This document shows positions 17,114 through 44,474 of a stretch of 63,999 nucleotides of DNA, one piece after another. Within the stretch, counting starts at the first letter, position 1, and each line of letters opens with the position of its first letter. The position numbers and the translations under genes were made by a program. The notes under the pieces are model-generated. The model was not told the DNA's origin. It ran no database searches and worked only from the letters and a program-made list of their open reading frames with translations. Source of the stretch: Octopus sinensis (Eukaryota); the NCBI RefSeq assembly GCF_006345805.1, contig NC_042998.1:112964002-113028000 (forward strand), written 5' to 3'.

Positions 17114-17160
<47 letters not shown>

Positions 17161-17170
17161 TCCCTCATAT

Positions 17171-18226
17171 TCACACACTTGTCCTTTTCTTTATTTTATA
17201 CGTTTGTTTGCAGTCTGCTTGGAATTTCACTATCCGAGGGTTAAATACAGTTCTAGAGTCGCGTAAAATTTCAAAAACATCTATTTCCTTTGACAAATAA
17301 ACCAGACTTTTAAAAACCTTCAGAAACAAAGACCTGGGATATGCGTTCCAGTATATTTGAAACTGTTCACGTCTTTCTTGGTCTGGCTCGAACATGTCAA
17401 GTAGTGTCGCTTCAAATTCCTTCTTTTCCAAGTCAGTTTCTGCTATCTTCCACAAAAGCTTTTCAGTATGAACCTCGCTTTCTTCAACAACAACAAAATC
17501 CTTGCACAAGTCATTATTATTATACACGAACTTTTTGTAAGTTTCTGCTGATGGTAAATATTGGAAAGCAAACTTAATAGGGGCATTGTTTAATATGTCA
17601 GTGATAACTGACATATCCAGGCCAACTTCGCTCGTTTTTCTGTACTGTTGAAGCGAACAGAAATTTCCAAGATAATCGAAGTAACGTTCAGGAGTTTGTT
17701 TCTTTTCCCATCCGAAAAGTTGCTCTTGGTGCTGATCCATCCACGTTCTCTCGATGTTATCCAATTCGTTGTAATCACCAATTTCCGTTTGTGACCATTC
17801 TTCAAACTCCTCCTTAATTTTCTCAGCAATTTGAGTCTTAGCTATGTTGAAAAATATTTCTATCAACGTGTAGACTGTCTTTTCGTCTCCATTATGTCTC
17901 GTAATAATGAAATTTACGAAAAGAGTTAGAGCCATTTTTGATATATTTAAATAGTGTTCTCTTTCTAAATCCCAAAGTATATCGGAATCATAAAACATAT
18001 TAACTCCAAGTTTCACAACGTCTTCCAGGTTATTGAAGTGTTCCGAAAGATCTCTCAAGCGTTTTTCTGTAAAGAATGCAAGTGAAGTAAAATCTTTTGG
18101 TAAATTTATACCTTTATTTTGATTCCAGTATTGTCCTCCTAAGTTTTCTAAACTCCTTGGATTTTTCTTCCAAAACAGTTTTCGAAATCTGTCCATTGTG
18201 ACGATCTCTCGATTGTGACCCGACAT
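17171..18226 (-). CDS. Intronless 351-aa hypothetical protein; aa ~51-140 resemble a death-fold domain
   Basis: Uninterrupted ATG-to-stop ORF of ordinary globular composition in stop-rich AT DNA. The helical pattern FTEKRLRDLSEHF..DVVKLGVNM..DILWDL...ISKMALTLF...TVYTLIEIF..IAKTQIAEKI fits the death-domain consensus by eye. Confidence 0.7.
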   Translation of the reverse strand: MSGHNREIVTMDRFRKLFWKKNPRSLENLGGQYWNQNKGINLPKDFTSLAFFTEKRLRDLSEHFNNLEDVVKLGVNMFYDSDILWDLEREHYLNISKMALTLFVNFIITRHNGDEKTVYTLIEIFFNIAKTQIAEKIKEEFEEWSQTEIGDYNELDNIERTWMDQHQEQLFGWEKKQTPERYFDYLGNFCSLQQYRKTSEVGLDMSVITDILNNAPIKFAFQYLPSAETYKKFVYNNNDLCKDFVVVEESEVHTEKLLWKIAETDLEKKEFEATLLDMFEPDQERREQFQIYWNAYPRSLFLKVFKSLVYLSKEIDVFEILRDSRTVFNPRIVKFQADCKQTYKIKKRTSV

Positions 18227-18399
18227 GATTAACTTTGCAAATTTGTTAGTTGTAATTTGCTGAGATAACGAAGAAATTCGAATAACTTTGGGATAAATTT
18301 AAGTTATATTAAACATAAGTTTCCTTACGAATGCGGAAGTAAAATTGATGGTTGCAAAAGCGCCGAGCCTCAGGAAAAAATGCTTTATTTACATTTACA

Positions 18400-18660
18400 C
18401 TGTGAGTAGGAATCCTACCGAGGTAAACTCTCCTTTTATCCGTTTTGAGGGTCAATAAAATAAAAGATCAGTCTCGTACTGTGGTCGATTTGGCAAGCTG
18501 GAAGAGTTCTTAACGTCGGTAAAATATTTAAGCGGTTCAAATACCACGGAAGTCAACTTTGCATTTTATTCTTTCGGAGTCAGTAACATACTTGAGTTGT
18601 TTTAATTAACTAACCTGAAAAACTGCAGACCTTGTACTAAAATTTTAAACAACTAATATA
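18400..18660 (+). mobile_element. Two decayed SINE fragments (Nin-type core)
   Basis: ccgaggtaaactctccttttatcc and ggaagtcaactttgcattttattctttcggagtc resemble the SINE core at 60360-60415. Confidence 0.55.
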
Positions 18661-19104
18661 ATGAAAAACAACGAAAAAAAAAAACTTTTACGGTATTTAC
18701 TTGCAGTAGTGGGAGCAGCAGCAAGTTTAGCAGTTTAAAAAGTTATGACAGCCGTAGTTGTAGGGTGAAGATTGAGTTATGTCCCCTGAATCAGACACTT
18801 CAAACGTTTTTTTTTACTCCTGCCTCAACATTATTGCTTTATCTGACAGCAAAATGACCGTGAAACAGAAACGGAATAAATATCATAAAGCTTCTATTCA
18901 AAGGCACCTATGTGTCGTATATTTTCGTCAATCTTTTTATCATTACGTCGAGATACAATCGCCGAATCCAATCTACAGTGGCACAGCGAAAATTTACTAG
19001 GTATTCCAATATTTTTCCCTGAAATTCTTATTTGAGTAGATGTACACACTTCAGTGTATGCATCGACGGCATACTCAGACACATACATAAATCATATACA
19101 TGCA

Positions 19105-19335: not shown

Positions 19336-20481
19336 TGATAGATGTAAAACAAAATAATAGGTTAATTAGGTTCGAGTTTTATTTGTGAACTGCAGTTGTT
19401 TTGAATTTACTGCAGAAAGTGGTCTCCATCTGTGATGGGGAAGGACGCTAGGAATGTGGCCTGTGTGCCAAGGGGGTGGGTAACCTGAAAAAGTTTGGGA
19501 ACTACTGCACTAGATGGTACTTCCTCCTCACTATTCAATGGTGAACCCTTAGATTTACTGCAGTTTAGCAATATTACAAATTAGTACCCACCCTAAATAT
19601 TCTGAAGCCTAACCCTCCCCCTAGACACCAAAGTCTGGTTGACGATATCTCAGTGATGCTATTTATATTTCCAATATATGGAGCGATTTACCTACAAGCA
19701 GAGAAAAACACCAACATTGCTTCTTTATGGGTGATCTGAATATATCTGCTAAGAATACAGGGATGAAGTTTGGCAAAGTTAAATCTTTTTATATTGTCAG
19801 ATTAAAAGGAATATTAGAGGGCTGAATCCAGCATAACGTGCTATACAGACGAAGACCCCTTCGAGAAACGAGAACGCAGTCACACCGCTACAAAAAGCGC
19901 GGCATAGAAATAGAGGTTGAAGAAAAAGACCACAGACTACGACATCACATGTTAGAGAAATGCAAGCCTTACTCTTAACAGCAGTAGCAGATGTAAATTG
20001 TGCTTTAAGGACAAGAGACGGATACTTAAGAAATCTCATGTCTGGGATGTATTTTTTTTTTTTGCCAAATCAGATATGTTTACGCTTTATTTACATTAGA
20101 AGTAGAACGTCAAATACTGATATTTAGCTGCTGCAGAAAAGTCGATCCAACTTCTGCTCCCTCCTTCCTTCCTTCCTTCACGCATTCATTACTTCCTTCT
20201 ATCCTAAGCGCCATCTGCTTTTCTTTCGTTCTTTTTTCTTTTCTTCAAGCCCCTCCTCTTTCGTTTGTTCCTTTACCCTTTCCGTCTCTTATTCTTTTTT
20301 ATACATTACTCTCACTCCTCCTCTCTTTTCTTTTCCATTTGACTCTACTTTTTCTCCGTCCCTCTACATTTATAACTTTTCATTTGTTTACTTTCTTTTA
20401 AGGTGAACATTTGGGTTACGATTTTATCCTTGTTTACTTTCTGAGAGATTTTCATTCAACTTTTATTACAGCGACCGGATC

Positions 20482-21145
20482 GGATCTTTTCGGTTTGAAC
20501 GGCAGTTTTTTCTAGCGGCGTCATATGAAATTGTCACCCATAATTATGACCCTAGTATCGATCTATTGCATTTCAATCTGTTTTAGGGTTAGGGGTGGGG
20601 TGAAGGGTATCTTTTTTTCTTCACAAATGTAAATAAACCCAATCTGTTTCTTAAACGAGGGACATATTCATACGGCACAGAATGTTTTTTACCTCAATAC
20701 ACGTCATTGATTGGTTGAAATTGCAGAAATTGGAAAAAAGCAACAAACATCTTACAAACTATAGAATTTTCTCAATAAAGCCAAGAGAAAAAGATGTTTT
20801 ATAGACACATTCTACCAGTATACGAAGTTTAAAAGGGTTAGGGTTAGGGGTGGACGAAGGGTATCTTTTTTCTTCACAAATGTAAATAAACCCAATCTGT
20901 TTCTTAAAGGAGGGACATATTCATTATGCACAGAATGTTATTTACCTAAATGGAGGTAATTGATTGGTTAAAATTGCCGAAATACAAGAAATTTTAGACG
21001 AAATATGTTACAACCTATAGAATTTTCTCAATAAAGCCAAGAGAAAATGATGTTTTATAAACACATTCTACCAGTATACGAAGTTTAAAATTTTTTAGTT
21101 ACCTAGAAATTATGTTACAAACTGCCGTTCAAAAGGAAAAGATCT
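20482..21145 (+). mobile_element. GGATC-ended MITE with internal tandem duplication and TTAGGG motifs
   Basis: TIRs ggatcttttcggtttgaacggcagttt / aaactgccgttcaaaaggaaaagatc. The internal ~255-bp block occurs twice (20585-20835, 20835-21090). Confidence 0.85.
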
Positions 21146-21590
21146 GGAGTTGCTAGAAGTAACAGTCAAAATATTGTTTAAAATAGACATTAGTTTTAAA
21201 ATTTCAAGAACGATAGTTTGCAATACACTCTAGGATTTTATAAAATAAATCTTTCTCGTATCTCCTTCTCCACATAAATTCACAAATATAAGAGTCAACC
21301 ATGCCCAGATACTTTCAATTTGTCAAGTGTGAGTCTCATCCGTTATGCAAACGAACAGTTATAGAACAAGTGGTGGTTACACTCCTTGTACGCATGCGCA
21401 GCATCTTTGGTAACTATAGAAACTAAGTTCTTCGCAATCACCTATGGAACACGTGGTGCTTCTTTGCTTCGGTTACTAAAGAGAAAGATTTCTTTGCCAC
21501 GGTGATGCCTAAAATACTTCTGATTGGTTAAAATACCCAAATTGTAAAAGCTAATAACTTTTTAATTATAGGTTTATAGGGAAAATAAAT

Positions 21591-21998
21591 GGATCTTTTC
21601 GGTTTGAGCGGCAGTTTTTAAAAATAATTTCCACGTAACTAAACACTTTTAAACTTCGTATACTGGTAGAATGTGTTTATAAAACATCTTTTTCTCTTGG
21701 CTTTATTTAGAAAATTCTATAGTTTGTAAGATATTTGTTTTGTTTTTTTCTGCAATTTCAACCAATCAATGACGTCTTTTGAGGTGAAAACATTCTGTGC
21801 CGTATGAATATGTCCCTCGTTTAAGAAACAGATTGGGTTTATTTACATTTCTGAAGAAAAAAAGATACCCTTCCCCCATCCCTAACCCTAACTCTAAAGC
21901 AGATTGAAATGCAATAGATCGATACGAGGGTCATGATTATGGGTGACAATTTCATATGACACCGCTAGAAAAAACTGCCGTTCAAACCGAAAAGATCC
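21591..21998 (-). mobile_element. Complete 408-bp MITE of the same family, opposite orientation, 7-bp TSD AATAAAT
   Basis: 29-bp TIRs ggatcttttcggtttgagcggcagttttt / aaaaactgccgttcaaaccgaaaagatcc; aataaat at 21584-21590 and 21999-22005; internal ccctaaccctaactctaa. Confidence 0.92.
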
Positions 21999-22199
21999 AA
22001 TAAATTTCATTTTCATAATTAGTATACAAATCTTATTCCATATACCAAATTTAAAAGCAGTTGGAGCAAAATCGTAAACAGTGACGAAAACCACAAAGAT
22101 CCCAAGTCACAAAAACTTTTCGTATGATTATACACCTAAATCAGAATTGGGGGGAAAAAAAGTTAACTGTGTAAAAATCATCACTAAATAGCCAGCGGA

Positions 22200-38507: not shown

Positions 38508-39090
38508 GGATCTTTACCTTTTCACCGACAAATTTAAAAATTATTTTTTGTAACTAAACACTTTCAAACTTCGGACACTGGTAGAATGTGTCATCTCTTA
38601 CTCTTAGCATTTTTGAGAAAAACTTATATTTAGGAAGTTATTTCACGTTAAAGTAGTCGTATTTCGGTAATCAATGCCATGTATTCAGCTGAATAAAATT
38701 ACTGTTGTTGTTTGTCAACAAGAACTTCCGGCGGTGTATATTTCGTTTGTCACTGTTATTAATGACAACCCTAACCCTAAAACCCTAATCCTAACCCTAA
38801 AACCTTAACCCTAGCCCTAAAACCCTAACCCTAAAACCCCAACCCTAACACCCTAACCCTAAAACCTAAAGCTAAAACCAGTACAAACGCACGAACGATG
38901 TCATAAATAACAGTGACAAACGAAAAATACACCGCCGATAGTTGTTGTTGACAAACAACGGCAGTAATTTTATTCAGCTGAATACACGTCATTGATTGGT
39001 TGAAATTACCGAAATAGGACAACTTTAACGTGAAATAACTTCCTAAATATAAGTTTTTCTCAACAACGCTAAGAGTAAAAGATGTTTTAT
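38508..39090. mobile_element. Foldback element with ~170-bp arms around a telomere-like (CCCTAA)n core
   Basis: 38595-38767 is inverted at 38899-39083. Core 38768-38878 consists of ccctaa/ccctaaaa units. Begins GGATCTTT like the 20-22 kb MITEs. Confidence 0.88.
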
Positions 39091-43245: not shown

Positions 43246-43395
43246 TTATAATCTTATTTTATAAATTTGTCCTTTTTCATTGCATAATTCCCTTTTCGAT
43301 ATTGCTTTAAATTGACAAGCTTCTAAGTTCTTTAAAAATATAAAAATTCCTGTATAACCAGCTACTCTTCTAAGCATTTTATTCTCTGTTTCCAG

Positions 43396-43697
43396 GAAGT
43401 GGTAGTTATTCGAAAGTCAAATTGGCTCAAAACTCTAAGAAAACTTCTTTAAAAGTGGCAGTGAAAATTGTTAATCTTTCAAAAGCACCAAGCGATTTCC
43501 TGAAACGGTTTCTACCTCGAGAATTGGAAATATGGCCGAAAATCGAACACCAGAACATAATCAGATTCTTTGATAGTTTTGAAGATTCCGGATATGTTTA
43601 TATGATTCTTGAATATGCTAGCAATGGAGATATGTTGACATACATCCAAAAGTATGGACCGATTCCTGAAATACAGAGTCGAGGAATAGCCAACCAG
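43396..43697 (+). CDS. TSSK: TSSK-like gene, coding exon 2 (kinase subdomains I-VIa)
   Basis: Acceptor ttctctgtttccag|GA and donor CAG|gtattg. Encodes GSGSYSKV, VAVK and the TSSK signature KAPSDFLKRFLPREL, then HQNII and ILEYASNGDML. Confidence 0.93.
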
Positions 43698-44474
43698 GTA
43701 TTGTAGGCTGATTAGTATTCGGACAGGTCGCAAGCTGGTGCGAATGCCCATTCATGCACACATCGAAACACACACAAACGCATATATACTAATACAAACA
43801 CATCTACAGATACATGTATACACTTAAATAGATACACATATTACATACAGATATATACTACATAAATGTATACATGCCTACGCGGACACACAGGGGTACA
43901 AATACACACACATATACACATGCGCGTGCGCGTAAACGCACAATATACATATACGTACGTATGTATATATATATGTATGTATATGTATGTATATATATAT
44001 ACATATATACATGCACACTCACTCACACACACACACGCGCACTCACCCACACAAACACACACACACACACACACACATATATATGTATAATATATATATA
44101 TATCAACCATTTGATACTAACTGCTGGAAAAACAGAATATTCAATATCATAGAAGATATTCATAAAACATTTTATTTTGGTCGAGTCAGTCTCTTGCTAC
44201 TCTTTCACCTGCACAAGGTCTGAGGACAAATTATGACTGGAAGTTGATAGAGTAACTCAAAAACTTTGTATTAGCGTGCAAACCCTATCAGTTTCCAACC
44301 ATAACTTGCTTGAAGATCTTGAACATCTACAGGTCTACAGGTGAAACTCAAAGTAATAAGAGACTGACTAGAACGCAATAATATATATTCTTTTATTATT
44401 CTATACGTTGCAGCCCTTGGGCTGCAGCCATGCTACAGCACCACCAGAGTAAGGACCTTTTCAATGGCCATTCT

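Follow-up and report, generated by a model that had tools for sequence, protein, structure and literature searches.

A single-exon Octopus sinensis gene of an octopod protein family with predicted death folds that evades Pfam

Introduction

Why does one open reading frame (ORF) stay intact among broken transposable elements (TEs), and what does it encode? The question is raised by 63,999 nucleotides of the Octopus sinensis genome (assembly GCF_006345805.1, contig NC_042998.1, positions 112,964,002 to 113,028,000; this whole stretch is the window below), which belong to C2, a contig of 208 Mb in a genome totalling 2.72 Gb. A sequence-only reading had singled out a 351-codon intronless ORF as an orphan with a death-fold-like domain amid decayed TEs, and had left its origin between a lineage-specific adaptor, a retrogene and a captured viral or TE-cargo gene. 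Here we report that this ORF is in all likelihood a functional host gene, that its product (P0001) belongs to a two-clade family found so far only in octopods, and that it is predicted to carry two death folds. Cephalopod innate immunity is known mainly through homologues of vertebrate genes, and proteins of the P0001 type evade Pfam and are filed as hypothetical.

Predicted domain architecture

The ORF (Table 1) runs from ATG to TGA with zero frameshifts, as first read; at the local base composition, the chance of an open frame of this length is about 7e-12 per frame start. P0001, a member of clade A, had no Pfam match even at E values as high as 10, which bears out the reported lack of reverse transcriptase, transposase and helicase motifs, and neither it nor its relatives gave a Pfam match above cut-off. 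PDB sequence searches with the family proteins reached E 0.11 at best; a PDE10A row (E 0.16) was set aside as chance.

The predicted structure of residues 49-143 (death domain 1, DD1), a bundle of six helices, can be superposed on known death folds, as expected of the death-fold superfamily. The best structural matches were the death domains (DDs) of ankyrins and the p84 DD. When this segment was compared by hhalign with 15 DD segments from its own genome, it scored 67% (E 5e-5, 69 columns; 0/200 shuffles), whereas the DED (2 rows) and CARD (14 rows) sets gave 0.2%, placing DD above both. The curated cut-off of Pfam PF00531 (22.6 bits) was not reached, with no match for P0001 and 13.1 bits for DD1 of its sister protein B, described below. 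The structural and profile matches uphold the six-helix pattern seen by eye at residues ~51-140, with limits of ~49-143, and we regard this segment as very probably a DD.

Residues 250-340 are likewise predicted as a six-helix bundle superposing on known death folds, and they probably form a second one. CARD, DD and PYD structural rows lie within 1 Z of each other for this segment, and profile comparison gave a marginal DD match over 24 columns only, with none to CARD or DED. Between the two folds lies a middle helical block, modelled at pLDDT 37-72, which is the best-conserved region between the two clades. Its profile matched neither death fold of P0001 and none of the DD, DED and CARD sets. 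No known fold was found for it among the structural matches listed, those lists being filled by the second death fold, and an ESM Atlas search with residues 150-351 returned no usable match. The block is conserved and matches no known fold so far. Two later blocks had been taken for degenerate helical repeats: TEKLLWKIAE is helix 1 of the predicted second death fold, which agrees with that idea, while the profile of the PERYFDYLG block matches no death fold. At the C-terminus, a T-x-V sequence (17174-17185, minus strand), which we take to be a possible class I PDZ-binding motif, is kept in P0001 and P0002 despite nearby changes and is absent from P0003.

Table 1. Features of the P0001 gene, its surroundings and related loci (window positions unless a locus is named)
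Feature	Position	Strand	Remarks
Single-exon coding sequence, 351 aa	17171..18226	-	Relatives' Met start at matching alignment column
N-terminal two-helix segment, aa 1-48	18083..18226	-	Invariant F14, R15, W19, P23, L26, W34; model pLDDT <50
Death domain 1 (predicted), DD subfamily, aa 49-143	17798..18082	-	Near-invariant vs O. vulgaris
Middle helical block, aa 144-249	17480..17797	-	Carries the family's signature motifs (aa 171-192, aa 212-230)
Predicted second death fold, aa ~250-340	17207..17479	-	DD subfamily slightly favoured
Likely 5' untranslated region	18227..18684	-	Contig of run X1, guessed RNA, spans 17160-18684 unjointed
(TA)n microsatellite	17123..17157		14 bases past stop codon
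Foldback element, 1.5 kb, non-coding	20479-22001		Beside gene; inverted arms of several hundred bases, internal telomere-like repeats
TSSK-like kinase exon	43374-43703	+	In window
Sister gene B	L002:1489-2643, G000:C2:112950126	+	
B copy, 5'-truncated and frameshifted	L003:1504-2110, G000:C14:5089088		94% DNA identity over 638 bases
ELL-family ORF, 423 codons, intact, intronless	L006:6533-7801, G000:C2:112930534	-	Pfam ELL E 7e-43
P0011, unannotated single-exon ORF, 380 aa	L018:790-1932, G000:C1:197463551	+	Two DD-like segments

An octopod family in two clades

The gene is no orphan: six full-length octopod relatives were found, one of them 30 kb away. Protein searches returned an Octopus vulgaris hypothetical protein (P0002) 90% identical to P0001 and a second protein, P0003, at 55%. 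Searched by profile, 1.84 billion representatives yielded four matches at E <=0.001, three being family members; the fourth, to the repeat protein PTPR-eta (E 9e-9, covering 34 positions), was rejected as a repeat artefact and excluded from every alignment. The nearby relative, sister ORF B (P0004), is intact, encodes 384 aa with 37% identity to P0001, and lies ~30 kb off, in tail-to-tail orientation on the other strand. Its own relatives come from O. vulgaris, O. bimaculoides and Argonauta hians, with one further sequence. The exact sequences of P0001, P0004 and P0011 (a third protein, treated below) were missing from the protein collection.

A tree of seven rows separates A (3) from B (4) with 100/100 support. 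The Argonauta protein is nearer B (55% identity) than A (30%), so that the duplication likely predates the Octopus-Argonauta split. The accession numbers of the O. vulgaris A and B proteins are consecutive, which suggests that their linkage is conserved there. No named relative was found in squid, cuttlefish or other molluscs, a result that marks a limit of detection and is not proof of absence. Six accessions of family members had no mention in the literature searched, and topic searches, among them one on orphan genes, listed no paper on the family, though supplements outside that search could name them; the part of PMC4199593 that gives the standard octopus adaptors leaves the family unmentioned.

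All four clade B proteins are ~25-30 residues longer than those of clade A and end in a hydrophobic segment (hydropathy 1.99, 1.99, 1.92 and 1.48) followed by basic residues, the typical pattern of a tail anchor; we predict that this tail is a membrane anchor. None of the three clade A proteins has such an extension, and the maximum hydropathy of P0001 is 1.09. All four B rows also carry what we presume to be a TRAF6-type motif at aa 220, where Lys replaces Glu in all three A rows; it falls within a predicted helix and may be chance. The O. vulgaris B model (P0005) goes out of frame at aa 240, where a GT donor-like site lies; this is probably a gene-model artefact.

Constraint

Between A and B, dN was 0.65 and dS ~2.3, near saturation, with ~0.3 for the core. 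A was compared with O. vulgaris at the protein level only, and codon-level dN/dS rests on other pairs. In that comparison 30 of 340 residues differ, distributed as 1/95 in DD1 and 29/245 in the remainder (p 0.001); against P0003 the same bias appears, with 26/95 and 112/241 changed, respectively (p 0.0014). B has no change across the 214 residues that could be compared with its O. vulgaris model. Against P0010 it shows the opposite pattern to A, changed at 29/98 positions of DD1 and 11/111 of the middle block; in B the two death folds are variable and the N-terminal and middle blocks conserved. In a word-share simulation, the 10 runs labelled organism B shared 0.49 of sampled words. If those runs carry the P0002 allele, as assumed, this hints at neutral flanks and a dN/dS near or above 1, with 0.3 unlikely. 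The copy of B on contig C14 gave dN 0.055 and dS 0.121 over 198 codons, and a decayed DD piece lies 1.3 kb upstream of B.

Transcript

The ORF stretch is present in 23 sequencing runs from 8 studies, none recorded as RNA. X1 is an assembly of 42 Mb and is guessed to be RNA; one of its contigs crosses 17160-18684 with no joint. Contigs of X5 cover most of the same stretch in several parts and differ once, at 18204, where codon 8 turns from Ile to Thr. Run X9 yielded no contig there, perhaps through filtering. The DNA-sized run X18 covers 18760-19050, which X1 and X5 leave uncovered. Since X1 ends at 18684 and X5 at 18745, the coverage edge marks no start site. These data fit, but do not prove, a transcript that is unspliced and has a long 5' leader. 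This leader would contain the ETS-like GCGGAAGT at 18333-18340 (plus strand), the single match in the whole window, with 0.52 expected by chance. The motif is where it had been noticed, but a promoter role for it is not borne out, as it sits within the stretch spanned by one RNA-like contig of a run only guessed to be RNA. The likely 5' untranslated region also includes a short high-copy repeat piece (18535-18586), and a donor-like site at ~18700 and an acceptor-like site at ~18259 form a candidate pair when read by eye.

Comparison with known death-fold systems

FADD (DED-DD), RAIDD/CRADD (CARD-DD) and ASC (PYD-CARD) are bipartite adaptors with a short linker, whereas in P0001 a 48-aa segment precedes the DD, which is the first of the two folds, and a conserved helical block of ~105 aa parts them. 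No sequence homology to these three was detected, and the P0001 family was found only in octopods. P0001 also recalls the short cFLIP and viral FLIP decoys, which are tandem DEDs, in having death folds with no catalytic part, as a possible competitor, and in weak Foldseek rows to tandem DEDs (E 2-5). However, only a single DED aligns (aa ~252-345), the middle block did not match a DED, and no DED profile matched.

Among molluscan proteins, oyster CgMAVS is described in part of PMC5557890 as a CARD, a death domain and a transmembrane segment (TM) through which it self-associates, and as binding TRAF6. Clade B resembles that description in its two predicted death folds and in ending, at the C-terminus, in a hydrophobic segment and a basic tail, while the first fold of the family is DD-class where CgMAVS has a CARD, and P0001 has no TM; CgMAVS was compared by description only. 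Neither A nor B is among the genome's 34 CARD or 8 CARD_2 matches, and both thus lack the N-terminal CARD of MAVS. The C-terminal anchor of MAVS is missing from P0001, with a candidate segment in clade B. B therefore only resembles MAVS, and in layout. According to the relevant parts of the sources, abalone appear to be without a conventional MAVS (PMC11103948), and certain lophotrochozoan RLRs have a death domain in place of CARDs (PMC8998645). In the genome studied here, one clear RIG-I C-terminal domain shares its strand with a CARD_2 match and lies 63 kb downstream of it, and no conventional MAVS was identified in a search that was not thorough.

Functional interpretation and alternatives

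With two predicted death folds and no enzyme found, an adaptor is the simplest reading, and the near-invariance of DD1 suggests that its partner in the host is a fixed one. The lineage-specific adaptor is also the best of the origins first proposed. From the predicted fold alone, we infer an immune or apoptotic role. We tentatively prefer, at somewhat less than even confidence, a soluble adaptor or decoy that acts in signalling beside its sister B, predicted to be membrane-anchored. Death folds assemble like-to-like according to the parts consulted of PMC8998645 and PMC11874512, and the latter explains the decoy role of DcR3 by loss of its TM. By analogy, the absent anchor and the rapid change outside DD1 suggest a soluble relay or decoy beside an anchored twin. 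DD1 would dock on a host death-domain partner by like-to-like contacts, and the second fold and the middle block would recruit or block downstream proteins, as general death-fold biology leads one to expect. B would help to build a signalling platform that P0001 tunes; with no anchor, A would be cytosolic and so a likely competitor or relay for B. Pressure from pathogens or shifting partners would agree with the rapid change seen outside DD1. If the family does signal, it would show octopod rebuilding of death-domain adaptor wiring. It offers a small, concrete test case in two linked genes whose constraint patterns are opposed, the product of one being soluble and that of the other a predicted membrane protein, and which share a conserved middle block that matches no known fold.

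A male-germline protein, its death folds a polymerising scaffold in spermatogenesis or sperm and its sequence evolving as fast as reproductive proteins do, is unlikely. Two tandem TSSK-like kinase genes, each an N-lobe plus a C-lobe open frame (window 43374-43703; L010:4349-4852; G000:C2:113055150 and 113059684; best PDB sequence match TSSK6, E 1.4e-17), lie 25-80 kb from the P0001 gene, and the ELL-family ORF lies ~50 kb away, past B; these neighbours lend a testis role some plausibility. Testis genes typically have single-exon coding sequences and change rapidly, and the sperm-axoneme chain 9ijj_4Y is among the fold matches of both domains. However, neighbourhood by itself shows no co-expression, the ORF stretch occurs in many small-assembly runs of several studies, and single-exon death-fold ORFs are common in the genome, as in a CARD-DD cluster on C14.

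The ankyrin and p84 structural matches, together with the conservation of B's N-terminal and middle blocks rather than its death folds, the opposite of A, would suit a constitutive scaffold in a non-immune pathway, with ankyrin-, UNC5- or p84-type DDs and with A and B independent; we consider this decidedly unlikely. It is improbable that clade B is an octopod-built, organelle-anchored adaptor replacing or paralleling MAVS, with P0001 as its anchor-less, TRAF-blind twin under positive selection. Such a signal-and-decoy pair would have an undescribed conserved domain, the middle block, at its core.

It is highly improbable that the gene is a duplicate on which selection has relaxed and which is on its way to becoming a pseudogene. 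The 30 differences from O. vulgaris, set against none in B, and the dead family copies (the C14 copy and the DD remnant) speak for it, but DD1 is spared, the three indels are all in frame, and the clade A frame is still open over 41% divergence (P0003). There is only a slim chance that a longer gene, with this ORF as its last coding exon, encodes a protein with extra N-terminal domains. The frame is open for 24 further codons upstream (375 aa) and the acceptor-like site is in frame. Against this, the initial Met of P0001 is aligned with those of P0003 and the four B proteins, the X1 and X5 contigs cross 18259 unjointed, and no relative of 673-2000 aa was found among 7833 candidates, a weak test. 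Transposon cargo or a captured viral gene, which the lack of introns and the surrounding TE fragments might recall, has a negligible chance, as the genome has only three places matching P0001 (a lower bound), no terminal repeats enclose the ORF, no relative was found in the viral fold library, 0/34 pattern matches were confirmed in viral contigs, and A-B linkage is apparently conserved.

Nor does a retrogene find a parent: none of seven candidates scored in the genome was intron-bearing, all matches being single-exon in lower-bound searches, and no poly(A) remnant follows the P0001 stop codon, although an old event would leave no trace. With single-exon death-fold ORFs common in the genome, the absence of introns is by itself no sign of retroposition.

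Genomic neighbourhood

Eleven neighbouring ORFs of the window were scanned, giving RVT_1 in three, Transposase_1 in two and DUF4371 in one; the TE-derived ORFs are short pieces, broken as first described. TE fragments surround the gene, yet no repeat pair encloses the ORF in the 14-23 kb examined. The gene does not stand alone among them, given the TSSK-like kinase exon in the window and the intact ELL-family ORF. The latter is possibly a retrogene, and the version of it tried was absent from the protein collection. Besides the foldback element, the window contains a degenerate (AACCCT)n interstitial telomere-like array at 38767-38879.

Other death-fold ORFs in the genome

Death-fold counts based on Pfam miss members, as the 22 Death matches in the genome include none of P0001, B and P0011. 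P0011 is comparable to P0001 in length and spacing, and its second DD matched DD1 of P0001 (hhalign 95.7%, 92 columns; 0/100 shuffles). Its first DD and middle block match neither the middle block nor the second fold of the P0001 family, so that the similarity seen covers DD1 and does not support homology over the whole length. A sub-cut-off Adeno_E4_ORF3 match on its first DD-like segment is likely chance.

The C14 cluster (63.80-63.87 Mb; L030, L033, L053-L055, L061) consists of single-exon CARD-DD ORFs of ~200-220 aa with a RAIDD-like layout, one of them shortened. On C26, at 17.2 Mb and 15.1 Mb (L062, L063), there are clusters of long single-exon ORFs in which repeated ~130-aa units come after an N-terminal CARD. 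A single-exon ORF of 406 codons at C18:47065893 (L059) combines a CARD with a part that we take to be caspase-like.
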